Below, piece by piece: positions 3,890-40,750 of a DNA stretch of 64,000 bases. This stretch comes from Escherichia coli. Its GTDB lineage: Bacteria > Pseudomonadota > Gammaproteobacteria > Enterobacterales > Enterobacteriaceae. Where the stretch lies: assembly GCF_013315695.1 (NCBI RefSeq), contig NZ_CP054353.1; one strand, 5' to 3'. Position numbers and translations under genes: made by a program. A model generated the notes under the pieces. The model was not told where the DNA came from, did no database searches, and saw only the letters and a list, made by a program, of their open reading frames with translations. Position 1 is the stretch's first letter. Each line of letters begins with the position of its first letter.

Positions 3890-6748
3890 CTAATCACGAT
3901 CGCGGAAGCTGTTCATCCCGGCGGATTGTCTGCGAATTTCTTCCCGTACAGCCTCCCCCACCATTCTGGCAAGGTCGCGCGGGTTCTGCGTCGCCACGTT
4001 GTGAAGATGAACGTGGATTTCCCCACCGAACACAGACGACGGTTCAGGAGAGCGCGAAGCCTCCCGGGTAGCCGGGGAGACTGGCGCCCACTGCTTAACC
4101 TCCACGGAACGGGAAGCATCCCGGGAGACCTCCGGAGGCACAGGCGAAACCGGAGGCATAACCGGTAGTCCTGGCGCAACAGTCGGCTCATTCCACTGCC
4201 CGCGAACAGCCAGCGCACGGGGGAGGTTTTTAAACACGATATCGCCGGGACCGATACGCTTGCGGGCTTCATGAAGCATGCCCGACGTATTACCCTCGAT
4301 ACCTTTAAGCCTGCGAAGAACGGCGCTGTTACCGCTGGTTATGCCGGGGGGATTGCTGGTTTTACCGTCATTCTGTGGATTACCATTCCCGTTGTTATTA
4401 TTGCTGACAGGAGCGGCCGGAGTGGGTACCCAGGACTTCTGAACCATTTTTTTCTGAACAGGGTCCCACTCCCACATAACCGGAGCCTTTGCAACTGCCT
4501 CAGCACGATTTTTCGCCCGCTCAACTTCAGAAGGGAGCACGCCGAGTTTTTCCAGCACCCATGCCAGGCCGTCCATCAACGCCTGAAGAGGAGTAAGCGC
4601 AAGCGATATCGCCCCGCTGAGCACGCGACCAAAAGTTTCCCCGACCGAGGCACACCGTTCAAGAGATTCATGGCTGGTCTGAACAGGTGTGAGTAACCGC
4701 CTGAACCAGTCATACACCGTGGACACCGCACCCGATACCAGATCAAACAGCGGCGCAAACTGAGCAACACCTTCACGAACAGGCGCAAGGCCAGCCCACA
4801 GCGCCCGGAATGTTCCGAGCATAAAAGCCTTAACCTGTTCCCAGTGACGCCATATGAGCAGCGCTCCACCGGCAAGGGCAGCAACCACGAGACCAACAGG
4901 ACTGAGAAGACCGGCAAGCGCCCCGCCCAGCACTGAAACCGCACCGGATACCATCCCCCACAGTGCCGGAAGGCCAGACAGGCGAAGGGCAAGACCACCA
5001 ACGCCAGTTGCAACAGAGGAAAACCCGCCACCAAGAAGCGCAGAGCCAAGCTGAAGTTTTGCAAAAATACCGGTCAGCACCCCGGAGGTCAGGGACAACG
5101 CCCCAAGGGCTGTCGTGGCCGCAAGAACACCACCGGCAACAATCGCCAGAGTACGCACCAGTTGCGGATTATCCTGAACCCATCCTCTGAGCCGTTCACC
5201 CCATGATACCGCTACCTGAACAAGTTCGCGGAGGTCATCGGTGACAAGGGCAACGACATCACTGCGTATACCGGAGAAGACACCAGACAGGCGATCGGCA
5301 TCACCGCCAAGGTTATCCCGCAGAACATCACCCATACGCCGGGCGGTTCCCTGCACCTGCCCCATACGGTCAGACACCGTTGCCAGCGAGCGGAGAAAAT
5401 CCGGGATCTGATCAACGGCCAGATCTTCGATGGGTGTGCCGAACAGCGCTATCGCCGCATTGGCTCGTTCCGCAGGATCCTGAATCTTCAGCAGCCCGGC
5501 AGCCGTTCGCTGCATTGCCTCGCGAGCAGCCGCGCCTCCGCTGGCAATCGCTGACAACATTTTTTCCGCATTAAGGCCAATCAGCCCATAAGCCTCAACG
5601 CTTGCTTTGGACATATCCGAGCCACGAATACTGAATTCCTTGACGGCATCGCCGGTTTTATCCAGGGCGAATTTCCCCTGCTGCGCCATGCTGACAAGCA
5701 GCGTCATGGTTTCAGAGCCGGAGAGCCCCATATTGCGGAAATGCGTGGAATACTCATGCAGAATTTCAGGAAGTTCGCCGCGCATTTCGGCGGACATTTT
5801 CTGCATGCCTGCCGCCATCAGGTCCACGGCCTCACCTGCATTTGCAGCGAGACCGTTTTTCAGCATGATGCCGGCCGCCTGAACCTGTTCAGCCACATTA
5901 CCGCCGGTGACCTGAGCAAGATCGATTGCCTGCCGTGTCACCCTCTCTAGTTCTTCAGTCCCTACAGTACCCAGTGCGCCAAGCGTGCTTTGCGCCGCAG
6001 CTGCCGCTTCGGAAATCATCGCGATATCCGTAGCCGCACCTGACGCACGGATGTTCTGAATCATACGGCTGTAGCGCTGGCCGTCTTCTGCGCTGCCTCC
6101 ACTCTGTGCCGCAATGAGCGCACCCTGCCGTTGCTCTTCAACAACAGGTGCAACCGCACGTCCGGCGGCGTACAGACCAGCACTGCCCGCTGCCATGGCA
6201 AGCGCACCGCGCTGGCTGAGTTTACCGGCGATATCCTGAACACGATCGTAACGTTGTTGTGCCTGCGTGACGCGCGCAAGCTGAGCCTGCTGGCGCTCAA
6301 GCTGATCGTTGTATTCCTGCGTTCGCCTGATTGCTTCTTCAGTGGTGCGGTTACTTCCGTCCGCCCGTATACCGTGAGACTCCAGCTCACGACCGGCTTC
6401 CCGTAGCCGGGACTGGTGAAGGGCGTAAACGGTATTAAGACGCTCAATCTTTGCAGTCAGTGAGCGGATAGCTTCCTGCTGTTTTTCCGTCAGTGTCGTG
6501 CCAGTACGCTGGACCTCCAGGAGGCGCTGAAGTCGCCCACGCGCCTCGTTCAGGCTGTTTTCAGTCGAGGCAACCTGCTGACGGGCACGGGAAAACGCAT
6601 CACTGCTTCGCTGGAGTGACTTAAGAGCGTTCTGCGTGGAGGAAAGAGATTCGGAAAGCGCGCCGGTCATTTCCCGGGCGCGCCTGACGGGTTGGGTGAG
6701 ACGGTCGACCGCAGTGAGGGCTACACGTATCTGGAGATTATTACTCAT
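3890..6748 (-). CDS. phage tail tape measure protein, P2 gpT-like
   Basis: long helical/Gly-rich ORF; track ORF starts at GTG 6802, ATG start (MSNNLQ) at 6748 overlaps the E' stop. Confidence 0.85.
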   Translation of the reverse strand: MSNNLQIRVALTAVDRLTQPVRRAREMTGALSESLSSTQNALKSLQRSSDAFSRARQQVASTENSLNEARGRLQRLLEVQRTGTTLTEKQQEAIRSLTAKIERLNTVYALHQSRLREAGRELESHGIRADGSNRTTEEAIRRTQEYNDQLERQQAQLARVTQAQQRYDRVQDIAGKLSQRGALAMAAGSAGLYAAGRAVAPVVEEQRQGALIAAQSGGSAEDGQRYSRMIQNIRASGAATDIAMISEAAAAAQSTLGALGTVGTEELERVTRQAIDLAQVTGGNVAEQVQAAGIMLKNGLAANAGEAVDLMAAGMQKMSAEMRGELPEILHEYSTHFRNMGLSGSETMTLLVSMAQQGKFALDKTGDAVKEFSIRGSDMSKASVEAYGLIGLNAEKMLSAIASGGAAAREAMQRTAAGLLKIQDPAERANAAIALFGTPIEDLAVDQIPDFLRSLATVSDRMGQVQGTARRMGDVLRDNLGGDADRLSGVFSGIRSDVVALVTDDLRELVQVAVSWGERLRGWVQDNPQLVRTLAIVAGGVLAATTALGALSLTSGVLTGIFAKLQLGSALLGGGFSSVATGVGGLALRLSGLPALWGMVSGAVSVLGGALAGLLSPVGLVVAALAGGALLIWRHWEQVKAFMLGTFRALWAGLAPVREGVAQFAPLFDLVSGAVSTVYDWFRRLLTPVQTSHESLERCASVGETFGRVLSGAISLALTPLQALMDGLAWVLEKLGVLPSEVERAKNRAEAVAKAPVMWEWDPVQKKMVQKSWVPTPAAPVSNNNNGNGNPQNDGKTSNPPGITSGNSAVLRRLKGIEGNTSGMLHEARKRIGPGDIVFKNLPRALAVRGQWNEPTVAPGLPVMPPVSPVPPEVSRDASRSVEVKQWAPVSPATREASRSPEPSSVFGGEIHVHLHNVATQNPRDLARMVGEAVREEIRRQSAGMNSFRDRD

Positions 6749-6895
6749 CGTTATGATTCCCGGATCTGGCAGCCGCCCGCTCTCGCCAGGCAACAACCTC
6801 ACCAGGACTCATACCGAATATCTCTGCGGGCGACCAGTTAAAGACAACAGCGATATCAGCGACAAGCTCTTCGATATCGTCAAACAGGAGACGAA

Positions 6896-7288
6896 TTACA
6901 TCACACCTGTATTCGTCTTTTTCTTGCCGGGCAAGGCCTTCGGCGAGAAAAAATACGTTGCCGCCGTGGAAAGCGCCCCGAAATCCTCCGTGCGCATGGT
7001 CGACAGTTCCGCTTCAGTAAGGCGGGGCTCTGTAACACGGCTGAGATAAACGCACATCGCGTTAAAGTTCAGGCTGTACAGGTGAGCCAGAGACAGACCA
7101 CGCAGTGAACCACTCTGACGGGCACGTTCGCCAATCTTCACATGTGTAATAACCTGTTCACCACGGACAACCGGAACGGTTAACTCAATGGGCTCACCGT
7201 TATAGGCAACCTCATTACCATCAGCAACATCAAAGTTGTCGACGTTATCAGCACCGGCAACCAGTACTTCGTTTTGTTTTTTTGACAT
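6896..7288 (-). CDS. tail assembly chaperone gpE-like (zero frame); E+E' product predicted by -1 frameshift ending at 6741
   Basis: ATG with AGGAG SD; slippery heptamer T_TTT_TTC at 6947-6953; -1 frame stays open for 68 codons to a TAA overlapping the tape-measure ATG. Confidence 0.7.
   Translation of the reverse strand: MSKKQNEVLVAGADNVDNFDVADGNEVAYNGEPIELTVPVVRGEQVITHVKIGERARQSGSLRGLSLAHLYSLNFNAMCVYLSRVTEPRLTEAELSTMRTEDFGALSTAATYFFSPKALPGKKKTNTGVM
6947..6953 (-). other. programmed -1 ribosomal frameshift slippery site (T TTT TTC) for E/E'
   Basis: X_XXY_YYZ heptamer in frame with the E codons TAT-TTT-TTC; downstream -1 frame is open. Confidence 0.6.
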
Positions 7289-7333
7289 TGTGAAATTCTC
7301 CTGGCGGCCACACGACCGCCGTCAGTCAGTTAA

Positions 7334-7846
7334 TCAGCCAAGTCCCAGCATGGAGCGGGTGCGATCAGGCAGCACATCCTTGCCATCAACGCGCCAGATG
7401 AAGTTCAGCACGTCGATTTCAATAACATCGCTGTTATCAACGCTGAGCTTGTACCAGGTGCATTTCATCGCGTAGGTGTGTTCGGTATCTTCACCCTGTT
7501 TGGCCTCGCCCTTGTCGATTTCGACAATGCGACCACGGGCTTCAATATCGACGTACTCAATCCCTTCTTCGGAATAGTATTCACCCGAGAAGCGCACGCG
7601 TACCGCATCAATGCCAGCGGCATATTTGGCAAAGATGTGACGATCCATACCGCCAACCGCAAAGGAGAGATCCAGCGCACCATCATCAAGACCGAGATCC
7701 ACCGCCGCAGAGCCTGGCATACCCGCACCACGATATGCTTCCGTCTTGCGGGTCAGTTTCGGTGGGGTGAAGGAGGTCACCTTACCCAGTTTGTTGTCAC
7801 CGTCCACAAAGACGGTAAACACACGAAGTTTTTTTGGTACGGCCAT
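7334..7846 (-). CDS. phage tail tube protein, P2 gpFII-like
   Basis: 170 aa; resembles remembered P2 FII (PKLTRK..YRGAGM motif). Confidence 0.85.
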   Translation of the reverse strand: MAVPKKLRVFTVFVDGDNKLGKVTSFTPPKLTRKTEAYRGAGMPGSAAVDLGLDDGALDLSFAVGGMDRHIFAKYAAGIDAVRVRFSGEYYSEEGIEYVDIEARGRIVEIDKGEAKQGEDTEHTYAMKCTWYKLSVDNSDVIEIDVLNFIWRVDGKDVLPDRTRSMLGLG

Positions 7847-29157: not shown

Positions 29158-29328
29158 TGTCAGTTATCATCTTCGGTTACGGTTATCGGCAGAACGCCCT
29201 GCCGCTGACAAGAGCTTATTTGCCTGACCAATCTACTCCACATGATAGATAACTATCATTTATAACATCTCATTGATTAGTCTTTATTTTTCATTGTGTT
29301 ACAAATAACAGCTCTGTCAAAAACAGCG

Positions 29329-29355
29329 AAATTAACTACACCATTAACTACACCG
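29329..29355. repeat. 27-bp direct repeat AAATTAACTACACCATT(A/G)ACTACACCG, left copy (right copy 40368-40394); candidate integrase binding or att sequence
   Basis: two copies, one mismatch, each followed by clustered CGAACAA motifs (29356-29395 and 40400-40510). Confidence 0.5.
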
Positions 29356-30293
29356 TTTCACGAACAATATCGAACAACCACGAACAAAGATCAACACGCT
29401 TTAACCGTTATCATTTTCCGGCTATCCGTTATGAAGCTGGTGGATGTTCCCCGATATGGGGATCCCCACCTACCGGAATTTTTGCCAGGTTAAATGTTAA
29501 CCTCTGCCCTGTTAACATTTTTACCAAAAAGGTAGTTAACATTTTTTGCACGCAACCAGATGAATCATAAAGAAAAAATCAACAACAACGCTTCATCAGG
29601 CAGTTAACATGTTAACTACTACGAAACGGTAATTTTTTCTCTGCGTGAGAGGGGGCGCGGTGTCCAGCTTATTCGTTGTTCGTGGCTAACCACTCCCCCC
29701 CCATGCCGGATTTTTTTTCCGGTTAACTGTTAATCAGGCTGGTGGGTTTTACATACCCTTGATCACCGTAATGATGATCCAGATCTGCACATTTCCACCA
29801 ATGGTGGAAAAGCCCACAGCAGGCCGCCCAGCCTCCACCAATGGGGTAAAAGCATCAACCGTAACGAAAGTCGTTATGGTTGCCACCGATACCCCAAATT
29901 TGGGTATCACGAGTAAGCCCCAAAATCTGGGTGTTACTCTTACCACCCAAACTACGGGTAGTTTCCGTAGTTTCATGGTCGAGTTGCAGATCTGCAACTC
30001 CCCCATTAACCACAGGCGAATTTCCGCCTTCGGTCATTCCTTAATCATCTGCGTAATCATAATGATTATTCAGCAAGCGCAATTTTGCGCTTTGCTTAAA
30101 GTTCAGCGAGTTACCGCGCCGACTTCCTCAAATTGAGGTTTCCGAAAATATCAGCGGGTTAGCGATTAAGCTGATCATTAATTAAACTGCGAAAATTTCG
30201 TAGTTTGTGACTGTCTTTCAGGCAGCTTGTTAACAGTCCTCAGAAGCGAGGGATGTAGCCACCCATTTTTGGTCCGTCGGGAATATCAACCAG

Positions 30294-30610: not shown

Positions 30611-30840
30611 GGTCCTTCCTGGAATTATGGCCCGTTACGGGGCGGCGACCTCGCGGTTTTTCGCTATTTATGAGATTTTTTGAGGGGGTGGTTGTTGTTT
30701 AATTGTTTGGTATATCTAATTGATAAGTAAGGTAAAAATAAAATAAATACAACAACCTTACGATGTATTTTGATGTCATTAATGTGAAAAAATTCAATGA
30801 TATCAAATGGTTTTGTAAAAACACATGGTTGTTGTATCGC
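30611..30840 (+). other. lambda-type cos site, copy 1 (cosQ-like, cosN GGGCGGCGACCT at 30640-30651, cosB-like region pointing rightward)
   Basis: GGGTCCTTCC..GTTACG-GGGCGGCGACCT-CGCGGTTTTTCGCTATTTATGAG closely matches remembered lambda cos; three GGTTGTTGT repeats (30690, 30749 inverted, 30828) as candidate TerS sites. Confidence 0.6.
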
Positions 30841-31008
30841 GTATTTGATGGCGTAACAGAAAGTGATTTTTAACTTTACCGCTCTGTAACTACGGATTAT
30901 TCCATGCTGGCACGGAGAACGGCTACGGCATGACGCCACCCAGCCTATACAGCACAGTAAAGCCGATAAATTGTTAATCACGCGCAGCAATGCGTGTGAT
31001 TTTTGCAC

Positions 31009-31206
31009 ACTTCCGGTTAACGGGTACGATGTCCGGTTTTAGTGTCTGTTTTTTGCGCATGTCCGGTTCATAGAAAGCATGTTTTTATATTTTTCATATG
31101 GTTAACTTGCAGAGAAACCGGACATGGATCCCGGAAAATTTTCATAAATAGTGAAAACGCGCGAGGTCGCCGCCCCGTAACGGGTCCATATGCCGGAAAG
31201 GACCCG
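31009..31206 (-). other. lambda-type cos site, copy 2, inverted (cosN on the minus strand at 31164-31175, cosB-like region pointing leftward)
   Basis: minus strand reads GGGTCCTTTCCGG..CCCGTTACG-GGGCGGCGACCT-CGCGCGTTTTCACTATTTATGAAAATTTTCCGG, near-identical to remembered lambda cosQ-cosN-R3; three ATGTCCGGTT repeats (31029, 31059, 31116 inverted). Confidence 0.65.
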
Positions 31207-31208
31207 TA

Positions 31209-31233
31209 AAAAAAAGCCGGATTTCTCCGGCCT
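31209..31233 (-). terminator. rho-independent terminator ending the island capsid operon
   Basis: minus strand GGCCGGAGAAATCCGGC followed by T8, directly after the 137-aa gene stop. Confidence 0.55.
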
Positions 31234-31237
31234 TGTC

Positions 31238-31651
31238 TCAGATGGTTTTCAGTATGCGATCGATGTCGCCGTCATCGCCCTGGTTTCTGCCATCGTACGC
31301 CATGCCAGCTGATACGGCTTGCGGGCTGTGCATGTCCATAAAGTTTTCAAAGGCTGCGGTAAGCTCTGGTGCAACCTTTGGGCGCTCCTGCTCTATGGTC
31401 ATGTTCAGGATTTCACGAGCATTATCGACGCTAATACATGGCACGTTTGCCATTGCACGTAACAGCGGCTGATAGTCGTTATGTTCATGAAGCGCCATAA
31501 TCGCATCAGCGCGCGGCTTGTCCTGTTCTTCCAGTTTGTTGAGTTGATATACGGCCTCGTAGGTTGATAAACCTCTGTCAGCCATTGCCCGCGCTTCTGC
31601 TTTAAATTTACTCGCCAGCGGTAGCGCCATGATGCTTTCATTCGTTGCCAT
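31238..31651 (-). CDS. hypothetical protein (137 aa), last gene of the capsid operon
   Basis: ATG with AGGGGAA SD; no family recognised; candidate packaging-redirection factor by position only. Confidence 0.5.
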   Translation of the reverse strand: MATNESIMALPLASKFKAEARAMADRGLSTYEAVYQLNKLEEQDKPRADAIMALHEHNDYQPLLRAMANVPCISVDNAREILNMTIEQERPKVAPELTAAFENFMDMHSPQAVSAGMAYDGRNQGDDGDIDRILKTI

Positions 31652-31663
31652 CGTTTCCCCTGC

Positions 31664-31999
31664 TTATCGCGCCAGCGGCTGAACGGATACGCCAGAACCC
31701 GCAAAGGCGGCGCATTTTTTCGCGTCAGTGTCGGCGCTCTCAGGCCAGTTTACGGCGGCGATATTAAATATCCCCGTCTTGTAACACTGTGCTGATTTCT
31801 GCTTTGACGTGTCCACGGGGTACGAAGTCAGATAAACAGCCTTGCCAGATTCCTGACCATCCCACGGCTTAAACTCGCCATTGTCCGCCAGCATCAGCGG
31901 GGTAAATTCCTGAATAACGCCAGCATCAGCGGCAAAATGTACCAGCGTCGTGGATACCTGCTGACTGCCTGCAAATAACTCAATGTATGGAGTGTCCAT
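31664..31999 (-). CDS. head decoration protein, lambda gpD-like
   Basis: 111 aa; shares TPLMLD, WDG, YK(S/T)G.F, WPE, AFAG motifs with remembered lambda gpD (110 aa). Confidence 0.65.
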   Translation of the reverse strand: MDTPYIELFAGSQQVSTTLVHFAADAGVIQEFTPLMLADNGEFKPWDGQESGKAVYLTSYPVDTSKQKSAQCYKTGIFNIAAVNWPESADTDAKKCAAFAGSGVSVQPLAR

Positions 32000-32011
32000 A
32001 GAATCCCCCCG

Positions 32012-33067
32012 TTAACCAATTTTGACGGTAACAAATTTGCGAATATCTGCCGGAACCGGCTGCGGTGCGCTGTGCGTCTGCACGTACTCAATCGCCGGAT
32101 CGCCGTCCTCAATCCAGTTTTTCGGGTAAAACATGTTTTGCGTTGCGCCCGTTCTTACCGCTTCCTGTTCCAGGATCGCACCATAGGCCACCAGCCCTTT
32201 ATTGTTGGTGTTGCCCAGGACCAGCAAATCAGGCTCAAGGAAATATTTTTCTGTGCCGTCGCTGTCAGTGTATTTGCCGGAATAGACGATAAGGGCCAGA
32301 TCACCAAGATAGCCTTTAAAGCTCACCACTTCGCCCAGGTTTTTACATGCCAGCTCTGCGGCGGATTCTGAACCACGGGAGAGATCGTACAGTTCACGGA
32401 ATTTTTTAAAGCTGCGTAACATGCGCCATACATCAACGCCCATAATCATGACGTTTGCGGGGCAACCTGCCTGATCTGCGTATAGCTCAATGTCATAGAT
32501 TGGGTCGTGTATGTCTTTGTCCTGCTCTGACCATTTTTTACCGTCGGCCTGCTCTATGATGTTTTTTTCCGGTATCTTCCAGTCGATTTCATAGCGCTCT
32601 ATGCCTTCGCCCTCAATGATGTTTTTTCCGGTCGTTACCGCATTTACCGCCAGCCATTCCACGCGCGCTTTAATGGCGTTTATCTGGCGGCGCATGTTGC
32701 CAGTAATCAGGCGCATACGGCGGTAGGTAGGGTCGTTAAGCTGTGCTGGATCTTCTCCAGCCATGCGCATTATTGTTTTTAATGGATCGATTTCGTGTTT
32801 TGGCTTCATGTAGCCAGGGCGAATAATGCTTGTTTCGTACCCTTTATCGCGCTGAACCTGGCTACCCACCATAGGCGAACAAAACGCCGACATAGTGACT
32901 TCTTCAATATCCAGGTTATCTAACATGATGTCCTGTGTGTTGAATGTCGCCACGTTCGGGAAAAACAGCGCGGTAAACAGCGGACTGAATTTAAATTCCG
33001 CAATATCCTCGCGATTCAGGTACGCAAAAAGCTGGTTAGTGTTAAGTGCTATTGCTTTTACTGTCAT
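32012..33067 (-). CDS. major capsid protein, lambda gpE family
   Basis: 351 aa; collinear similarity to remembered lambda gpE (FKF.PLF..LFF, PGY(V/M)KPKHE, DP.YRR.R, YPKNW..GDPA, SAP); start overlaps the upstream stop (TAATG). Confidence 0.85.
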   Translation of the reverse strand: MTVKAIALNTNQLFAYLNREDIAEFKFSPLFTALFFPNVATFNTQDIMLDNLDIEEVTMSAFCSPMVGSQVQRDKGYETSIIRPGYMKPKHEIDPLKTIMRMAGEDPAQLNDPTYRRMRLITGNMRRQINAIKARVEWLAVNAVTTGKNIIEGEGIERYEIDWKIPEKNIIEQADGKKWSEQDKDIHDPIYDIELYADQAGCPANVMIMGVDVWRMLRSFKKFRELYDLSRGSESAAELACKNLGEVVSFKGYLGDLALIVYSGKYTDSDGTEKYFLEPDLLVLGNTNNKGLVAYGAILEQEAVRTGATQNMFYPKNWIEDGDPAIEYVQTHSAPQPVPADIRKFVTVKIG

Positions 33068-33273
33068 TATTCACCCCCGTGAACCTGATTCATACCCAGC
33101 GCCGCGCGTAAATAGGCGCGTACCTGCCAGCCTGTTGACGGCTCAACCATCGCCAGCGGATCAAGTCCTGCCGCAATGCCTGCTTTTACGTTCTGCTGGT
33201 GGCGTTCCTTGAGCGCCTTCACGATGTCGGGGCTTATGTACACCGAAACACCGCCTTTTTTCTCTTCAGCCAT
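33067..33273 (-). CDS. hypothetical protein (68 aa), first gene of the capsid operon
   Basis: ATG with AAGAGG SD; translationally coupled to the capsid gene. Confidence 0.5.
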   Translation of the reverse strand: MAEEKKGGVSVYISPDIVKALKERHQQNVKAGIAAGLDPLAMVEPSTGWQVRAYLRAALGMNQVHGGE

Positions 33274-33302
33274 AGTAAGAAATTCCTCTTTGACTTAAAA
33301 AA

Positions 33303-33357
33303 TCATAACTGGATGTTCATCCAGTTATGATTATAATCATGATTGCATTTTGTGCAA
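33303..33357 (-). promoter_or_regulatory. promoter of the island capsid operon with a 28-bp palindromic operator
   Basis: minus strand TTGCAC-N16-TATAAT immediately followed by perfect palindrome TCATAACTGGATGAACATCCAGTTATGA. Confidence 0.5.
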
Positions 33358-33527
33358 TGATATTGAGTTGCGTTGCAAATTATGAAATTATTATCCCGAT
33401 CATGTGTGTCAGTGCACCAAAAAACCTCATATGCAAAAGCCCGATAAGCCACCTCTGACCTTATCGGGCTTTTTTTGGGCGCAAAAAAGCCGGATTGCTC
33501 CGGCTGTGTGGTGTGGTTCTGGTATTC

Positions 33528-33776
33528 CTACTCTGCTAATTTGCTCAGCCCCATGTCTGCGTAAGTGCGATTTACTGCATTTCTCAGGTCTGCATAGTTC
33601 TCCGTTGGCGGCTCCGGTGGCCTCTGTGCCTTCCTGGAACATTCCAGCCGTCGCATCGTGATGTGATGCCGTTCCTTGTCTGTCTCCACCAGCATCATGA
33701 CTTCACCCCATCGCGCCGCCGCCCTCCGGTAAAATCCTTTCGCTTCGAGTTCTTCCGCTATGCGGTCATGTACCAT
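33528..33776 (-). CDS. small regulator, possibly PerC/Pch-family transcriptional activator
   Basis: 83 aa from ATG 33776 with GAGGGGG SD; LEAKGFYRRAAARWGEV resembles the PerC-family core as remembered; weak call. Confidence 0.35.
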   Translation of the reverse strand: MVHDRIAEELEAKGFYRRAAARWGEVMMLVETDKERHHITMRRLECSRKAQRPPEPPTENYADLRNAVNRTYADMGLSKLAE

Positions 33777-33786
33777 CGTCACCCCC

Positions 33787-34197
33787 TCAGAACGGAATAT
33801 CATCACCGTAAGGGTCATCGCCTCCCGCTGGTGGCTGATTACCCTGTGCGCCTGTGGTTTTGCGTCTGTTCCCGCCAGGACGTGCCGCACGGGCACTGAT
33901 TACGCTGTCTGCAATAACCTGATAACCCTGACGCGTCTCCCCGTTCTGTCCGGTCCACTGGCTTACCTGCATCGTGCCGGATACGCTGGCAACGTCGCCT
34001 TTTTGATGTTTAGCCAGGAAGTCGGCCTGCTTACCAAATGCGATGACCGATAGCCATAACGTCGCCTGTCCGTCCTGTGCCTGACTGCATGGCAGTGATA
34101 CCGCCATACGCGCCAGCGTCATCGGTGTGCCCTTGCTGGTCTGTTTTACCTGCGGGTCGTCCACCAGCCGACCGTAAGCCGCTATCTGTGCTGTCAT
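33787..34197 (-). CDS. single-stranded DNA-binding protein (SSB-like)
   Basis: 136 aa; OB-fold pattern (W..V.AFGK.A, KGD.V.V.G, W....G..R) and C-terminal acidic tail ...DDPYGDDIPF typical of SSB. Confidence 0.65.
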   Translation of the reverse strand: MTAQIAAYGRLVDDPQVKQTSKGTPMTLARMAVSLPCSQAQDGQATLWLSVIAFGKQADFLAKHQKGDVASVSGTMQVSQWTGQNGETRQGYQVIADSVISARAARPGGNRRKTTGAQGNQPPAGGDDPYGDDIPF

Positions 34198-34445
34198 GAT
34201 TCCACCTCTCCGGTTTTAACGTTGATGGTTGTTACCTGTTCCGCTTCGGCAATCTCCCGTTCTGTCAGCGTGGCAAAGTTTGCCGCCGCCGTGGTCATGA
34301 ATGCGCTTATCAGGTCGGGATGTTCCTTCGCGTATCCTTCCCGCGTGTGGCGGTCTATCGTTCTGATTGCCACCTTTAAGGTGTGCTCAGTCATGTCTAA
34401 CGCTTTATATTTTGGCTCTGTTCTGTCTCTGCGTGTTCTGGTCAT
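34194..34445 (-). CDS. hypothetical protein (83 aa)
   Basis: ATG 34445 with GAGGTGG SD; stop overlaps the SSB start (ATGA). Confidence 0.4.
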   Translation of the reverse strand: MTRTRRDRTEPKYKALDMTEHTLKVAIRTIDRHTREGYAKEHPDLISAFMTTAAANFATLTEREIAEAEQVTTINVKTGEVES

Positions 34446-34469
34446 TTGCCACCTCAATTTATATATATA

Positions 34470-34805
34470 GAAACATGTGCGGGTTATGCGGGTTATTGGG
34501 TTATCTTAGCGTGCTAACCATTTTTTATCCTTTTATATCAGTATTTTGCAAAACACCCTGTTTATTATTTGCCCACCACGTAACCCGCAAAACGCTCAAA
34601 ATAACCCGCAAACGGGGTTTTTTCTGCGGGTTACGCATGACTGTCCGGTGTTACTTCAGTTATTCGCCTGCGGGTTATAATCGTGCTTTTGCGGGTTATA
34701 AATGCCCTTTTGCGGGTTACGTGCGGGTTATTGGTTTCCTTTATATTCATGCACTTAATACACTTATACACAGGATAACCCGCATAACCCGCAATTTTTT
34801 TCCTC
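34470..34805. repeat. iteron array, candidate replication origin of the island
   Basis: at least 12 copies of GCGGGTTAT / ATAACCCGC in both orientations within ~330 bp of AT-rich DNA, directly downstream of the primase-replicase gene. Confidence 0.65.
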
Positions 34806-34815
34806 ACACAGGGGA

Positions 34816-36939
34816 TTAATCTTCATCATCAGGCTGGAACATCAGCACGTAAAAAACATGCTGCTTACCCCCAATCTTGCCCAGCGCCTTTTTTTTGTAT
34901 CGGCGATCGCTTCCCTTCTCCAGCATTCCGGCAGCATCCAGGGCACGCGCAAAATGCGCCGGATTAAATCCCTTCGCTATCTCACTCTCAAACACGTGCG
35001 GGAACGTGTAATAGCGCATCTCGTCATCTTCGTTGCGAATGCTCCCTTTTCTGTATCCGGCAAGCTCTTTAATCGGTAAATCACGCTCATCTGTATTGGG
35101 GTACGGAAGGTAGCGGCTAAACCCAAACGACGACAAAAACGCCTCAGCCTGTTCAACCATCTGTTTAAATTCCCTGTTACCCGTGCCGAACTCCTTCACC
35201 CAGGCATTAAAGTTATGCTGTATCGCGTCGCGGCATTCCTGCACGACCCAGCCAGTTACATGACCGGAAAGCACAAGCGCGGCCTCCAGTATGGCGAAAC
35301 GTTCACCCACGCGGTGGACCTGCTCGCCGTAGCTCTCCGGTATCAGGTTGCGCCACCGTTCGCGGCATTCCCTTACCGTATCCTTTGCCTCCTGCTGGTG
35401 GCCTGCCAGCCATTTAACCCACTCACGACCCGCCGCCCCGTGATTTGCTGTCCAGGCATCCTTTAACGCGTCAGCATGTTCCTTACCGTTGCTGTATTCG
35501 TGAAATTTCGTGGCTTTTTCCATCGGAACGTTAAGCAGTCGGACAAGCTGCCCCGCCTTAACTTTTATCCCCTCACTTTTGAGGAATGTCTCAACGTCCA
35601 TTTCTCCGGTGCTGATTGCCACCGTTCGCCAGTGTTTGATCTCCCTGTTGCCGCCATCCTTCGCCCCCTGCAATTTCCCTGAACCGTTAAACAGCGTATA
35701 AGCAGACGTTGACACTTCCCGCGCATTTCCGGCCTGGCCTATCTCATCCAGTGGTAAAAGCCCGTCATTATGGGCCTCGGCCTCATTGGCAATACCTAAC
35801 GCCGTGCCGTACCAGGTCAGCCGCTGCGCGTCCGGCTCTCCCCATAAACTTGATGCGATGTTCTGCGTGGTGGTCTTACCTGCCGATGACTGTTCGAAAA
35901 GATGCACCCCGAAGCCGTCAGCACCCACAAGGCCAATTAAAGGCGCTGCCAGTGACGTTGCCACACCCAGCATCATTGAGGCATTACCGCCAGCCAGCCG
36001 CGCCACACTCTCGCGCCAGCCCTCCGCCGTACCCGCCACGGAATAACCGTTAATCGCGGCGCTTTTTCCGGTAAACAGGATCGGTTTTTCAGAATCACCA
36101 ATGATCGAACCGTCCGGCATGATGTACGCGCCAAAATGCCAGCCCGTTGTTGTGCTTAACTGCCATTCCTCATGGCTTCCGCTTAACTGCATCCAGTCCG
36201 CCAGGATTGCCCTGTATTTGCCGTTGGTTGTCACGTTCAGCCCGTGATCTTTAAGTAACCGCCAGCCGTCACGGTCGCCGATACCACCACACGGGATCGC
36301 CATTGTGATGACTTCATGATTTGCTAATTTTTTCCAGCGCATGACGCGGTAATGCTCTTTACCGATCGTCCCCGTTCCCAGTAGTTCAAGCGGAGAACAT
36401 AACCACGTCTCAGGCCGGATAATTTCGCCTGACTGCTTATCCACTTTGGGCGTTACCCAGAAAACACCATCGGCGCGACTTTCAACGCGTGGCTTTAATT
36501 CGTCATCGCTATGGCTTCCGGTATCTTTTTTCTTTACCGGAAACTCAATAACCAGACCATCAGAAAGATTCTGCCGCTCACGGGCCAGATATTCGCGCCA
36601 GTTCTCCACCTCCTGACCGTGCATTCCATCAGGGTAAAAATTTGCATCCTGTACGCCTGCCGCCGCCAGCTTCTGACCAATCGCCTTGATCATTACTGGC
36701 TCAAGATGTCCGGCCCTGAATATGCGTACTGATTTTCGGCCTTCCGGCACAATTTGCAGCTTATCCAGTTCGGCAAGTTGTTGCTCTCCAAGCCAGACAG
36801 GAGGCACGTTATCGCCAGCCAGTCGCCCGTCCTGTTCCTGCCACTGTTTCGCATGTGCCCAGGCATCACTACCCGCAAAAATGATGACTTCCGTCATTTT
36901 GTCACGTGGCTGGTGTTTTAAATTTGGCGCTTTTTTCAT
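34816..36939 (-). CDS. primase/replicase (P4 alpha-like or PICI Pri-Rep-like)
   Basis: ~707 aa from ATG 36939; Walker A-like SSAGKTT; position next to the iteron ori; ATG overlaps the upstream stop. Confidence 0.75.
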   Translation of the reverse strand: MKKAPNLKHQPRDKMTEVIIFAGSDAWAHAKQWQEQDGRLAGDNVPPVWLGEQQLAELDKLQIVPEGRKSVRIFRAGHLEPVMIKAIGQKLAAAGVQDANFYPDGMHGQEVENWREYLARERQNLSDGLVIEFPVKKKDTGSHSDDELKPRVESRADGVFWVTPKVDKQSGEIIRPETWLCSPLELLGTGTIGKEHYRVMRWKKLANHEVITMAIPCGGIGDRDGWRLLKDHGLNVTTNGKYRAILADWMQLSGSHEEWQLSTTTGWHFGAYIMPDGSIIGDSEKPILFTGKSAAINGYSVAGTAEGWRESVARLAGGNASMMLGVATSLAAPLIGLVGADGFGVHLFEQSSAGKTTTQNIASSLWGEPDAQRLTWYGTALGIANEAEAHNDGLLPLDEIGQAGNAREVSTSAYTLFNGSGKLQGAKDGGNREIKHWRTVAISTGEMDVETFLKSEGIKVKAGQLVRLLNVPMEKATKFHEYSNGKEHADALKDAWTANHGAAGREWVKWLAGHQQEAKDTVRECRERWRNLIPESYGEQVHRVGERFAILEAALVLSGHVTGWVVQECRDAIQHNFNAWVKEFGTGNREFKQMVEQAEAFLSSFGFSRYLPYPNTDERDLPIKELAGYRKGSIRNEDDEMRYYTFPHVFESEIAKGFNPAHFARALDAAGMLEKGSDRRYKKKALGKIGGKQHVFYVLMFQPDDED

Positions 36940-37235
36940 TTCTGCTCTCTCCACGCGGCAATCATGTTTTTCAGTTCCTGTAGTTTTTTATCCACATCCA
37001 CACGTGACACATGGTTATTTCTGGAAGTCGGGATTTCCCGCCTGAATCTGCTAATAAAGATCTCCACGTTCAGCGAACTATGAAATGAATAGCCATCACG
37101 AATAAAATACACACGGTCAAACATCAGTTCTTTTACCGTTACTCTGTTGCCGTTCTTATCCAGATAAATAGCGCCGGGGATAATTTTGGGGTGTGCATAA
37201 CCGCTGGCAGTCAAGCCAGATAAATATGTTCTCAT
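36936..37235 (-). CDS. hypothetical protein (99 aa)
   Basis: ATG start; coupled to the primase. Confidence 0.45.
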   Translation of the reverse strand: MRTYLSGLTASGYAHPKIIPGAIYLDKNGNRVTVKELMFDRVYFIRDGYSFHSSLNVEIFISRFRREIPTSRNNHVSRVDVDKKLQELKNMIAAWREQK

Positions 37236-38488: not shown

Positions 38489-38698
38489 TCAAGCGGCCTT
38501 GCCTGAATTAATGCGTTCGCGGTTTTTGACCCACGCCACAACCTCAGACTTAACCCAGCCAACAGAACGACCGCCGAGACTGATACGGGAGGGGAAGCGG
38601 CCCTGCTTTTCCATCTCGTAACGAGTTGTGCGGCAAACGCCTGTTAGCTCTCTGCATTCTTTTTCGCGGATTACGCGATCTTCATTTATTTCACGCAT
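38489..38698 (-). CDS. alpA: AlpA-family transcriptional regulator / excisionase-like
   Basis: 69 aa from ATG 38698; helix-turn-helix pattern (CRELTGVCRTTRYEMEKQGRFP...GGRSVGWVKSEVVAWV) and position next to int. Confidence 0.65.
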   Translation of the reverse strand: MREINEDRVIREKECRELTGVCRTTRYEMEKQGRFPSRISLGGRSVGWVKSEVVAWVKNRERINSGKAA

Positions 38699-39107: not shown

Positions 39108-40346
39108 TCAAGAATTTTGGGAGTAAATTCGCGGGGTCATAACAACGATTTTTTCATCATTGTTCTGGAGAAGCTCGAGACGCTCAACCCATAGATTAAG
39201 AGCGTCACGTTTTGCATCGAGATAACGGGAGTGATTATAGACTCGTTGCATTCCTGGCAACTGGTGCGCGGTTAGCTGCTCCACTACATGAGGATCCACG
39301 CCTAAATCGTTCAGCATCGTTGTAAACGTGTGCCGGATGTCGTGCAACGTCCAGGGGGCTTGATTAATGCGTCTGTGTGCCGTTCTTCCGTACTCTGATA
39401 CAGATGATTGCCCTTTCAGTTCTCCGAGTAATAAGCCCGTGTGTCGGTTCTGCTCCACCAGCTTCGTTACGAACGGCAAGATCGCTTCCGGTATTGGCCT
39501 GAATATTGCTACCTTCGTTTTGCTGTGTTCTTTCGGCACAGTCCAGAGCATTTCTTTAAAATCCCATTCCTGGACCTCAGAGCGTCTTAGCTCAGTGGTA
39601 CGGCATCCGAAGACAATCAGGAGGCGAATCAGGGCGCTGTAGTACGGTGTGTAAATTTTTTCATCCAGGGCGCGTAGTAATTCCCCAAGCTCCTTGTTTG
39701 TTAGTACGCGCTCGCTTATTTCTGCTTTTTTCCCAACATCACCTACAACCATATCATCTAGAACGTTGGTAATTGCGTAGCGTCGTTTGCGGCAGTACTT
39801 AAGCGCCTGCTTGCATACCTGTAACAAAAATCCTGCTGATACCGGATTACGCATAGCAAGCTGATCAAAACAGGTCAGCCAGTGGCGTAGCTCGCATTTT
39901 TCCAGCGGCATAGCACCAATATGGCTGATTATGTGTGTATTGATCCGGCTTTTCAGAGATTCGTAATCTGTGCGCTTTTCCTTCGCGTACGATTCAAGCC
40001 AGTAAGTGAGCGCTTCCTTAACCGTAACAGGTGATAACGCTTCCTGTACGGTGTGATTAAGCTCATGGCGTGGATTTTTACCCTCAGCAAGCCAGGCGCG
40101 ACACTGCGACGCTTTTTCCCTGGCTGCTTTCAGGCTCAAATCTGGATAATTTCCCAGCCTCAGACGTTCAGGGGCTACCTTCCTGCCTGTTCCGGCCCTG
40201 TAAGTGAAATACCAGGTTAACAGGCCATTGGTTGAATGCCTTACGCTAAGGTTGCCACCATCATTAAAAAAGGTGTTTTTTGTGGTTGGTGATCCGCTTA
40301 ATTTTCGTAAAAGAGTGTCGCTAAGTCTATGAATTGCCCTGCTCAT
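39108..40346 (-). CDS. tyrosine site-specific integrase (P4-type)
   Basis: 412 aa; C-terminal catalytic motifs (R..TELRRSE, HDIRHTF, Y near the C-terminus); at the island edge. Confidence 0.9.
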   Translation of the reverse strand: MSRAIHRLSDTLLRKLSGSPTTKNTFFNDGGNLSVRHSTNGLLTWYFTYRAGTGRKVAPERLRLGNYPDLSLKAAREKASQCRAWLAEGKNPRHELNHTVQEALSPVTVKEALTYWLESYAKEKRTDYESLKSRINTHIISHIGAMPLEKCELRHWLTCFDQLAMRNPVSAGFLLQVCKQALKYCRKRRYAITNVLDDMVVGDVGKKAEISERVLTNKELGELLRALDEKIYTPYYSALIRLLIVFGCRTTELRRSEVQEWDFKEMLWTVPKEHSKTKVAIFRPIPEAILPFVTKLVEQNRHTGLLLGELKGQSSVSEYGRTAHRRINQAPWTLHDIRHTFTTMLNDLGVDPHVVEQLTAHQLPGMQRVYNHSRYLDAKRDALNLWVERLELLQNNDEKIVVMTPRIYSQNS

Positions 40347-40750
40347 GTTTCGAATTTCCGGTCATCAAAATTAACTACACCATTGACTACACCGAGCATC
40401 GTACAAGGGCGAACTGTGACGAACAAGGGCGAACAAGAAAAACGAAATTATCCTTTATAATCATAGAAATAAATGAGATACCTACACCATGACGAACACC
40501 CACGAACACTAACTGATAAATAACTATCATCTATCGTTGGCATCAGCGACATCTGTCACATTCCTGTCAATAGCGTTAACTGCTTCAAATTTTTGATTCA
40601 TACCTGCCCCCTGGCCCCTGTCAAATGCTTGACGGCTCGCCCTAATTCTCTAAATTGTATTTCTAGAGTTGGCGAGGTTTTGAACAGCCCCCTCTCTGAC
40701 CCCGGTTTATTCCATCTTACTTGTATAAGATTTGCGAAGGATGTCGAAGC

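Follow-up and report, generated by a model that had tools for sequence, protein, structure and literature searches.

Helper-dependent induction, replication, and high-frequency transfer have been demonstrated in the literature for two phage-inducible chromosomal islands (PICIs) of E. coli, EcCICFT073, the Gram-negative prototype, and EcCIEDL933. A pri-ori construct, which may include ssb, replicates by itself (PMC6092414). Gene c1497 of EcCICFT073 was labelled 'ssb' by Fillol-Salom 2018, and the ssb/perC pair has been under discussion in papers of 2012, 2018, and 2025. The idea that small satellite-borne regulators influence adhesion, motility, or LEE expression is already under study as well (PMC3378721, PMC6265319, PMC7369912, PMC11773190). 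Over-expression of one such regulator, PchE, lowers csgD/curli expression and adhesion and raises flagellar expression (PMC6265319, PMC7369912). SOS induction lowers pchE expression (PMC6265319), which fits poorly with a simple co-induction alongside the replication genes.

The window analysed here is the whole 64,000-nucleotide stretch of E. coli DNA. The initial annotation had placed an SSB homologue of 136 aa and a possible PerC-like activator of 83 aa on an island in this window. We read the interval, with a probability of about 70%, as the two genes that close the early/replication operon in an EcCICFT073-type PICI of about 11 kb, one coding for a canonical SSB and the other for a PchE-type optional cargo protein.

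Island identity and layout

The 'island' of the initial annotation proved to be an EcCICFT073-type PICI by its gene content, att core, and cos. It is about 11.3 kb long, is seated between clpS and cspD, and has the gene order int, alpA, RgdR-like DUF4222 gene, primase-helicase, iteron ori, 83-aa gene, ssb, perC, terminator, capsid homologue, decoration homologue, and lambda-type cos (Table 1). As in other PICIs of this type, there is a terminal int, an alpA gene, unidirectional transcription, a pri/rep gene followed by an iteron origin, a size within about 8-15 kb, and an att site of its own; lysis and tail genes are absent, and the helper cos site is carried as two lambda-type cosN. The origin layout agrees with the published PICI origin organisation (PMC6092414). 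In the primase-helicase, the HTH_56 match (E=7e-4) lies under its Pfam cut-off, and a profile search gave a weak match to SCCmec Cch1. ATGATAGTTAT, the reverse complement of ATAACTATCAT, is the published att core for cspD-clpS PICIs.

The packaging/interference module consists of counterparts of EcCICFT073 c1498-c1500 and the next gene. The inverted cosN pair is also found in CFT073 and IHE3034, and the stretch enclosed by the two cos sites of the window island holds no recognisable gene. E. coli N10 is 100% identical to the window across the 1.1 kb searched (33400-34500), and its island is likewise flanked by clpS and cspD. The two islands diverge at cos, where N10 has a small-terminase gene and the window a different 506-bp segment; this difference ruled out mapping N10 coordinates onto the whole window. 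The coordinates of EcCICFT073 in CFT073 were taken from Table S1 of PMC6092414. The region at 1.395-1.440 Mb of CFT073 was ruled out as EcCICFT073, being a lambdoid prophage at icd.

Table 1. Features of the PICI and their positions in the window
Feature	Position	Strand	Basis or remark
Direct repeat, island end, clpS side, with ATAACTATCAT	29243..29263	.	
Two inverted lambda-type cosN (GGGCGGCGACCTCGC; 30640-30654 +, 31161-31175 -) flanking 506 bp	30640..31175	.	chance expectation 0.02
Packaging/interference module: 68-aa gene, lambda-E-type major capsid homologue (32012-33067), lambda-D-type decoration homologue (31664-31999), 137-aa gene	31238..33273	-	
Second hairpin (GCCCGATAAGG...CTTATCGGGC, then TTTT)	33427..33475	-	downstream of first terminator; kept in CFT073 and IHE3034
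Intrinsic-terminator-like hairpin AGCCGGAGCAATCCGGCT, then TTTTTT	33488..33505	-	about 20 nt past perC stop
PerC-family (PchE-type, group 3) small regulator, 82 aa, short allele	33528..33776	-	Pfam PerC
ssb stop and perC ribosome-binding site GAGGGGG (TGAGGGGGTGACGATG; TGAGGGGGTGACG, then ATG)	33777..33789	-	sequence reading
ssb, 136 aa	33787..34197	-	Pfam SSB, TIGR00621, PHROG 44, PDB SSB matches
83-aa conserved protein, PHROG 1231, first gene of the module	34194..34445	-	stop overlaps ssb start (ATGA, 34194-34197)
PICI replication origin: several TGCGGGTTAT / ATAACCCGCA iterons, both orientations, flanking an AT-rich stretch	34478..34800	.	directly 3' of primase-helicase gene
Primase-helicase / replication initiator (DUF927, Cch-type C-terminal HTH)	34816..36954	-	Pfam DUF927 E=5.5e-48
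DUF4222 protein at rgdR position (ECs1581/c1493)	36936..37235	-	31-34% identity to those; no RGD motif; PMC3378721
alpA-type regulator, PICI inducer gene	38489..38698	-	Pfam Phage_AlpA E=5.9e-16
Tyrosine integrase	39108..40346	-	Pfam Phage_integrase and Arm-DNA-bind_3
Direct repeat, island end, cspD side, partner of 29243-29263	40514..40534	.	

The 83-aa gene, ssb, and perC module

The spacing from the ssb stop to the perC ATG is 10 nt, and the perC start reads MVHDRIAEELEAKGFYRRAAARWGEV; from this arrangement ssb and perC are probably co-transcribed and translationally coupled. Neither is a chance ORF. Codon comparison with the alleles of other islands indicates purifying selection, with dN/dS of 0.04-0.15 for ssb and 0.18-0.49 for perC. 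The first hairpin beyond perC marks the end of the early/replication module and is common to classical PICIs and cf-PICIs. The whole module recurs in EcCICFT073, in Sakai Sp7 (the cf-PICI EcCIEDL933), and in another cf-PICI, and the islands that share it have differing primases and packaging modules. The 83-aa gene holds the equivalent position in CFT073, Sakai Sp7, IHE3034, and a cf-PICI. Its product matched no Pfam or NCBIfam family and has only unnamed homologues, mostly from Escherichia and Shigella and one from Citrobacter; the AF2 model is of low confidence (pLDDT 61), too poor for a fold search.

The sister island of IHE3034, at the same att site, keeps ssb and has no perC, and there a near-identical hairpin (GCCGGAGCAATCCGGC and a T run) follows within about 20 nt of the ssb stop. 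perC is therefore an optional cargo gene and not a core life-cycle gene. One may nevertheless ask whether the PerC-like protein works for the life cycle of the satellite or phage and not for the host, as an ANR-like modulator that binds a helper-phage, island, or nucleoid regulator and thereby times the downstream packaging operon or hinders the helper. Its gene is the last of the early operon; just beyond it are a promoter-like site and a 14-bp palindrome/T-run, which precede the packaging genes. Its ANR-like domain is consistent with such a role, and four of its six PHROG matches are labelled 'transcriptional activator'. PerC-family genes also adjoin replication or early genes in the temperate phage SfV, where orf40 follows the replication protein gene, and in the lytic N4-like phage Pollock, but these phage matches are weak (tblastn, E about 1e-2 to 1e-3). 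Against a life-cycle role, IHE3034-type islands without perC retain the packaging operon and the palindrome, and EcCIMP1 has a PerC-like gene without structural genes. The conservation between classical and cf-PICIs stops right past the perC terminator, so that perC moves with the replication module over both kinds of packaging module. The idea of a dedicated late activator moving with the packaging operon was downgraded for this reason, and because the IHE3034 operon does without perC; it was kept only as a rival explanation. Overall, a life-cycle role appears unlikely, and optional cargo is the preferred reading of perC.

The SSB protein

Profile searches, which had been proposed as the check on the initial annotation, placed both proteins far over the curated cut-offs, and the null outcome was not seen. 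The 136-aa protein matches Pfam SSB PF00436 with E=4.2e-17 (62.5 bits vs. a cut-off of 26), the NCBIfam model TIGR00621 ssb with 58 bits (cut-off 53.95), and PHROG 44 (SSB) with E=7e-41; among PDB entries, solved SSB structures account for 26 matches at E<=1e-3, the best at E=4e-11. The acidic ...DDIPF tail claimed for it is indeed present. The C-terminus is GGDDPYGDDIPF, with the tip ...DDPYGDDIPF after a short Gly/Pro/Gln-rich linker, and the IHE3034 allele terminates in DNIPF. EcCICFT073 c1497 is 99% identical. Window residues W48, F54, and W81 align to W54, F60, and W88 of E. coli SSB, so that three of the four aromatic residues are kept; W40 aligns to Cys, and H55 is replaced by Leu. Since equivalents of W40 and H55 are absent, the binding mode and tetramer interface may differ. 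By its sequence, the protein appears to be a canonical bacterial SSB with an OB fold and a host-like tip, and we infer that it binds ssDNA and recruits partners. It looks auxiliary to replication because the pri-ori construct, even if it may include ssb, replicates alone. Of the 5426 complete E. coli genomes searched by megablast, 1169 contain ssb-like DNA, about a fifth.

A host-like tip might also be a conflict tool, which competes for the host SSB interactome against the helper or acts as an anti-phage decoy or trigger. Interference with helpers is known for PICIs, and the tip is host-like even though the OB domain shares no more than 33% identity with E. coli SSB. No close relatives were found among 50,697 phage records (the best, at about 35%, are from metagenomic and Gram-positive phages), which points to a satellite-specific SSB lineage. 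On the other hand, ssb comes immediately behind the origin within the replication operon regardless of which interference/packaging module follows, and no defence-system context was seen around it. Deletion of c1499 or c1500 leaves interference, the known determinants of which lie elsewhere; the published Rpp interference mechanism reportedly maps downstream. A main function in conflict is thus considered very unlikely, and a replication SSB is preferred.

The PerC-like protein

Membership of the PerC family, suggested earlier from a short motif and called weak, stands, whereas the length does not: the protein has 82 aa and not 83, because the gene starts at the ATG at 33776, and RefSeq agrees. 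Identical DNA in RefSeq already has both genes named and annotated in agreement with these families. The match to Pfam PerC PF06069 (E=1.1e-35, 122.2 bits vs. a cut-off of 22.6) spans model positions 1-77 of 90, and PHROG 994 is matched with E=2e-39. The motif in question, present as LEAKGFYRRAAARWGEV, shows the strongest conservation of any part of the family: across 57 diverse members L10, R17, R18, and A19 never vary, and A7, E11, G14, R22, W23, and C46 are nearly invariant. All of these N-terminal core positions and the conserved Cys are present in the window protein, which agrees with the core pattern A-E-x-L-E-x-x-G-x-(Y/W)-R-R-A-x-x-R-W. The EcCICFT073 copy is 96% identical to it, Sakai PchE 80%, and the PerC of EPEC E2348/69 43%. 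The AF2 model has four helices (pLDDT 90.9). The sequence gave nothing meaningful against the PDB (best E=0.18), and Foldseek of the model gave no match under E of about 3, with only weak similarity of the MIT-/TPR-type helical-repeat kind.

The window allele ends ...MGLSKLAE, without the C-terminal (I/F)(W/F)R(N)Y motif, whose R and Y are at least 90% conserved in the alignment of close relatives and which is present in PchE and EPEC PerC. A simple frameshift of the 90-aa form was ruled out because in the DNA alignment the 3' end has diverged and no clean single-base indel is seen. Without this nearly invariant motif, the short allele may be impaired or altered. If the copy were decaying and inert, the missing C-terminus would mark a stage on the way to the total absence of perC from IHE3034. 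The dispensability of perC in sister islands and its distribution agree with this: perC-like DNA is present in 768 of 5426 complete E. coli genomes by megablast (about a seventh), but copies at least 95% identical are present in only about 48, and most matches listed cover only nt 1-227 of 249. However, the frame, the ribosome-binding site, and the core motif are whole, the dN/dS against CFT073 is 0.18 (from few sites), the four-helix fold is confidently modelled without the tail, and ANR proteins work at just about 55-70 residues. Decay to an inert copy is thus distinctly unlikely, and an intact, if short, PchE-type cargo gene remains the preferred reading.

Activation of LEE in the manner of PerC or PchABC is unlikely. 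Along the lines of the initial annotation, a rival reading would make the protein a true PerC/PchABC-type activator of ler/LEE or similar virulence loci and the island virulence-regulating. The strong Pfam membership and the 43% identity to EPEC PerC with a whole core motif agree with this, as does the report that some PICI PerC homologues activate LEE (Fillol-Salom 2018). However, according to Pick et al. 2025 (PMC11773190), which refers to Porter et al. 2005, the near-identical EcCICFT073 copy and the EcCIEDL933 copy (PchE) leave LEE1-lacZ unaffected, and the related EcCIMP1_025 is a LEE1 repressor (PMC11773190). Over-expression of PchE lowers adhesion, and the C-terminal motif of EPEC PerC is missing from the window allele. 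Moreover, the closest carriers named here, CFT073 (UPEC) and N10 (a cerebrospinal-fluid isolate) are not EPEC or EHEC, and UPEC lineages lack LEE (Flockhart 2012). A virulence activator of this kind therefore seems highly improbable. As for the claim that the island could act on host genes outside its own life cycle, this would follow by analogy from plasmid over-expression of PchE.

How a PchE-type protein could act is suggested by the ANR family, whose members work through protein-protein binding (PMC4983702). The NCBIfam ANR model picks up 45 of the 57 PerC-family members, with a best E=6e-12. About 50 N-terminal residues of the window protein align to the entire ANR model NF033650, at 20.4-20.5 bits against a curated cut-off of 32; since the relationship holds at the family level and lies below the cut-off for this protein, it is called 'ANR-like' and not a member of ANR. 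The profile overlap supports the protein-protein mechanism that Pick et al. 2025 had hypothesised. Since the structural search yielded nothing significant, it is by analogy with ANR that the PerC-like protein would most likely modulate transcription via other regulators and not via DNA. No report of ANR-style binding to AraC-family linkers or H-NS was found for PerC-family proteins. Against a protein-only mode, ChIP studies have reportedly placed Pch proteins at sites on the chromosome.

A broader and rather doubtful proposal is that PerC-family proteins, including the window copy, are ANR-like anti-regulators that sequester AraC/XylS-type, H-NS, or phage regulators, with an ancestral role in the early module of phages or satellites, and are not DNA-binding virulence activators. 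If so, activation by PerC/PchABC and repression by PchE/EcCIMP1_025 would be two outcomes of one partner-binding mechanism, and the 82-aa allele would represent a naturally occurring minimal form of an ANR-like anti-regulator.

A possible mechanism

The proposed sequence of events can be potentially described as follows. A helper phage would induce the island via AlpA, and the island primase-helicase would open the adjacent iteron origin. The 136-aa SSB would cover the single strands exposed at the origin, and its DDIPF tip would bring host replisome and repair partners to the satellite forks; SSB would thus be an auxiliary but strongly conserved piece of the replication module. The PerC-like product, of PchE-type group 3 and translationally coupled to ssb, would modulate transcription through regulator binding. 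Going by PchE over-expression, its expected effects would be less csgD/curli and adhesion and more flagellar expression.

The observation of an ssb/perC pair is confirmed as real, ordinary, and already known, since it is part of the well-described EcCICFT073-like kind of PICI. Its value lies in classification, as the ssb-perC end of a PICI replication module and not a new virulence regulator. With ssb-like and PchE-type perC DNA at the frequencies given above, small satellite regulators could shape adhesion, motility, or LEE expression in many lineages. Three new details may be useful: the optional perC slot directly behind ssb, the allele without the C-terminal motif, and the overlap between the PerC and ANR families.

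Comparison with known systems

Compared with E. coli chromosomal SSB, the satellite protein shares the OB fold, three of the four ssDNA-stacking aromatics, and the terminal DDIPF tip, whereas it is only 33% identical (to a reference sequence whose length is consistent with PDB 1eqq) and has 136 aa vs. 178 aa, with a far shorter disordered linker. In the SCCmec replication operon, as paper titles and abstracts describe it, a mobile element likewise combines a DUF927-type self-loading helicase (Cch/Cch2) with an ssDNA-binding protein of its own, in the form of small OB-fold partners. According to the same accounts, that system is Gram-positive, and what binds ssDNA there is either an atypical protein or half of a polymerase-SSB primase pair; the SSB of the window is canonical and has a host-like tip.

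Members of the ANR family (Aar, Cnr, and Rnr) are small all-helical proteins by CD data (PMC4983702), as is the AF2 model of the window protein. The latter has an extra fourth helix and a sub-cut-off score, however, and no AraC-type partner gene is near the window perC. EPEC PerC (pMAR2) and EHEC PchA/B/C share the Pfam family and the LE-x-KGFYRRA-x-x-RW core, but these are LEE1/ler activators in a plasmid (perABC) or lambdoid-prophage setting. PchE (ECs_1588 / OI-51, Sp7) of O157:H7 is closer, since it also follows an ssb gene (ECs_1587), belongs to group 3, and has three differences from the window protein within the first 57 residues. It differs in having 90 aa with a C-terminal EIWRNY, and its host island is a capsid-forming PICI with a complete HK97-type head module.

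The closest system is EcCICFT073 itself. Both islands share the order of the 83/85-aa gene (c1496), ssb, perC, terminator, 68-aa gene, and capsid and decoration homologues, as well as the inverted cos pair. Integration is between ycfD and phoQ in EcCICFT073 and between cspD and clpS here, and a 584-aa 'DNA primase family protein' there stands in place of the DUF927 primase. The DUF4222/RgdR proteins are 31-34% identical, and the segment between the cos sites is, in the window island, without a recognisable gene.

Structure and family assignment of the ssb-perC pair

Reading of the ORFs gives two minus-strand genes of the same orientation within 33528-34197, and the families of both products are settled by profile searches. 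The 136-aa protein matches Pfam SSB (E=4.2e-17, 62.5 bits; cut-off 26), NCBIfam TIGR00621 above its cut-off, and 26 solved SSB structures at E<=1e-3. The 82-aa protein matches Pfam PerC (E=1.1e-35, 122.2 bits; cut-off 22.6). For the pair, PHROG 44 (SSB) and PHROG 994 were matched at ~1e-40. The initial annotation had described an SSB-like protein with an acidic DDIPF tail and, rated as weak, a PerC-like neighbour, and had proposed Pfam SSB and PerC searches. Both proteins match far past the cut-offs, and the DDIPF tip is present and aligns with that of E. coli SSB; the length of 83 aa given for the PerC-like protein is corrected to 82 aa (33776 to 33528).

Since the ssb stop and the perC ATG lie ten bases apart, with a GAGGGGG ribosome-binding site, the two genes look co-transcribed and translationally coupled. 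The ssb ATG overlaps, as ATGA, the stop of an 83-aa gene 5' of it. This 83-aa protein is strongly conserved and, in phage-inducible chromosomal islands (PICIs), always encoded just 5' of ssb; its homologues are chiefly from Escherichia and Shigella, with one match in Citrobacter, it has no family in Pfam or NCBIfam, and its AlphaFold model is of low confidence (pLDDT 61). Near-identical terminator-like hairpins (AAAAAAGCCGGAT..CTCCGGC) follow perC (33483-33509) and the 137-aa packaging-module gene (31210-31236). The G+C content of the ssb-perC segment (33600-34199) is 57-60%, against 42% in the adjoining origin, and is among the highest in an island whose 300-bp windows span 33% to 60%.

Features of the island in the window, with gene order along the minus strand
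Feature	Position	Strand	Remarks
Direct repeats, island ends	29243-29263; 40514-40534		contain ATAACTATCAT
Tyrosine integrase	first gene
AlpA-family regulator	after integrase		Pfam E=6e-16
Icd-like gene	after AlpA-family regulator
DUF4222 protein	36936-37235	-	position of rgdR (ECs1581/c1493)
DUF927 primase-helicase	after DUF4222 gene
Origin	after primase-helicase		TGCGGGTTAT iterons, both orientations, each side of an AT-rich stretch
83-aa/ssb/perC module, terminators	after origin
83-aa gene	34194-34445	-	PHROG 1231; apparently translationally coupled to ssb
ssb	33787-34197	-	136 aa; C-terminal end ...GGDDPYGDDIPF
perC	ATG 33776, stop 33528	-	82 aa; N-terminal MVHDRIAEELEAKGFYRRAAARWGEV
GC-rich hairpin, T-run	33488-33505		~20 nt past perC stop
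Second hairpin	33427-33475		3' of perC
68-aa gene, lambda-E-type capsid homologue, lambda-D-type decoration homologue, 137-aa gene	after perC terminators
Inverted lambda-type cosN pair	30640-30654; 31161-31175	+; -	GGGCGGCGACCTCGC, each then lambda-like TTTTCGCTATTTATGA

The island SSB

Aligned with an E. coli SSB sequence whose length is that of PDB 1eqq, the island SSB is 33% identical. It retains residues equivalent to W54, F60 and W88 as well as the DDIPF tip, lacks counterparts of W40 and H55, and has a far shorter linker. The protein forms a satellite-specific lineage: in 50,697 phage records the closest sequences, which belong to metagenomic and Gram-positive phages, share ~35% identity with it.

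From the anatomy observed in the island we infer a scheme in which a helper phage would induce the island via AlpA, the primase-helicase would then melt the iteron origin, and the single strands would be coated by the island SSB, whose host-type tip may draw host replisome and repair partners to satellite forks. Since a cloned pri-ori segment, in a construct that may have included ssb, was enough for plasmid replication (PMC6092414), the SSB is probably an efficiency factor, not essential, and of use when phage and satellite replicate together. That it acts mainly as a conflict or decoy tool is improbable.

perC as optional cargo

The sister PICI of strain IHE3034 shares the att site and packaging operon of the window but lacks perC (6565-7402 of that locus, L008, against 33274-34197). 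The ssb allele of IHE3034 encodes 140 aa with the tail DNIPF (dS ~0.96 from the window allele), and a near-identical hairpin terminator comes no more than ~20 nt after it. Since ssb there leads directly to the terminator, perC is optional cargo and the site after ssb behaves as an optional slot. In alignment, conservation between classical and capsid-forming PICIs stops just past the perC terminator; therefore perC travels with the replication module and not with packaging. By megablast, ssb-like DNA was found in 1169 and perC-like DNA in 768 of 5426 complete E. coli genomes.

The window and CFT073 carry a short allele, in the minority, without the (I/F)(W/F)RNY motif found at the C-terminus of PchE and EPEC PerC; the majority of listed E. 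coli homologues align to nt 1-227 of 249 only. A simple frameshift at the 3' end was rejected, as the DNA alignment shows a diverged end. A decaying copy is an unlikely explanation of the short allele; in codon comparisons with other islands' alleles, dN/dS was 0.18-0.49 for perC and 0.04-0.15 for ssb, and both genes are under selection, ssb strongly.

Possible functions of the PerC-like protein

Only 254 relatives at E<=1e-3 came out of a profile search through 1.84 billion representatives. [quoted passage not shown] Its AlphaFold model, built on the relatives' alignment, is confident (pLDDT 90.9), with four helices and no significant match to any fold in the PDB. According to PMC4983702 and PMC10148876, ANR proteins work by binding H-NS and the linker of AraC-family activators. 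By analogy, the PerC-like protein, which would be made from the ssb transcript, is most likely a cargo regulator acting via protein-protein contacts.

The initial annotation had pointed to PerC/Pch-family activators of virulence loci, with the LEE ler promoter as a test, and to a possible influence of the island on host gene expression. However, in the account of Porter 2005 that Pick 2025 (PMC11773190) gives, the EcCICFT073 and EcCIEDL933 copies leave LEE1-lacZ unaffected, and EcCIMP1_025 represses LEE1 (PMC11773190). The literature thus makes LEE activation by the PICI subgroup unlikely, and a true LEE activator in the window very improbable. The observation is confirmed, and its interpretation is supported as a family assignment. 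When over-expressed, PchE represses csgD and curli, reduces adhesion and increases flagellar expression (PMC7369912, PMC6265319); these are phenotypes of over-expression. Since SOS induction lowers pchE transcription (PMC6265319), a putative pchE promoter independent of island induction is suggested.

The protein could instead serve the life cycle, for example by timing the packaging operon. PerC-family genes adjoin replication or early genes in the temperate phage SfV (L010 2210-2698; orf40, YfdN-like, directly after the replication gene) and the lytic N4-like phage Pollock (L009 2501-2743, near the terminal repeat), positions that hint at a general phage early-gene role; however, the absence of perC from IHE3034 weakens this possibility, which we hold to be unlikely. 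Two elements precede the packaging operon, whose 68-aa first gene starts at 33273: a sigma-70 promoter-like site (33386->33357) and, between it and that gene, a perfect palindrome of 14 bp, AATCATAACTGGATG-AACA-TCCAGTTATGATT, with a T-run behind it (33301-33332). The CFT073 PICI has exactly this palindrome, and IHE3034 a copy with two mismatches in one arm; capsid-forming PICIs have another hairpin and T-run directly before the capsid gene. The palindrome could be a late-operon operator, or a terminator under antitermination.

Comparison with known islands

The pair lies in an insertion of ~11.3 kb between clpS and cspD, whose end repeats carry ATAACTATCAT; reverse-complemented, this gives the published att core for PICIs at this site (Table S1 of PMC6092414). 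A second, longer direct repeat just inside the ends (29324-29396 and 40363-40435) has the core AAATTAACTACACCATT(A/G)ACTACACCG, whose reverse complement corresponds to CGGTGTAGTTAATGGTGTAGTTAATT, the published att core of a different PICI, EcCIDI14. This repeat may represent arm sites for the integrase, or the att region may be composite. The origin has the published PICI layout of iterons and AT-rich stretch (PMC6092414). The DUF4222 protein is 31-34% identical to RgdR (ECs1581/c1493), a published T3SS/motility regulator, and has PGA where RgdR carries the functionally important RGD. Both cosN sites are exact and enclose a 506-bp AT-rich segment with only a doubtful 114-aa GTG ORF, which matches no family and does not resemble the gene that CFT073 has between its cos sites. 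The same inverted pair flanks a 144-aa HTH-like gene in CFT073 and a small-terminase gene in IHE3034, whereas the cerebrospinal-fluid isolate N10 has a single cos and a small-terminase gene. Over the 1.1 kb searched (33400-34500) the window matches E. coli N10 at 100% identity, and there RefSeq labels the products 'single-stranded DNA-binding protein' and 'PerC family transcriptional regulator'.

Published work lists perC as a PICI accessory gene (Fillol-Salom 2018, PMC6092414) and PerC-family regulators as common in Gram-negative PICIs (Pick 2025, PMC11773190); therefore the ssb-perC observation is correct and already known. The PerC-like protein is 43% identical to the bona fide PerC of EPEC E2348/69 (pMAR2). 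Sakai Sp7 (OI-51, the capsid-forming PICI EcCIEDL933) carries ECs_1586, ECs_1587 (SSB) and pchE in the order of the window, and PchE shares 80% identity with the window protein, with only three differences in the first 57 residues. The island named in the initial annotation has the att core of a PICI and is built like EcCICFT073, the prototype among Gram-negative PICIs. EcCICFT073 contains the same 83-aa/ssb/perC module, in which the SSB (c1497, given as 'ssb' in Table S2 of PMC6092414) and the PerC-family protein are 99% and 96% identical to those of the window.
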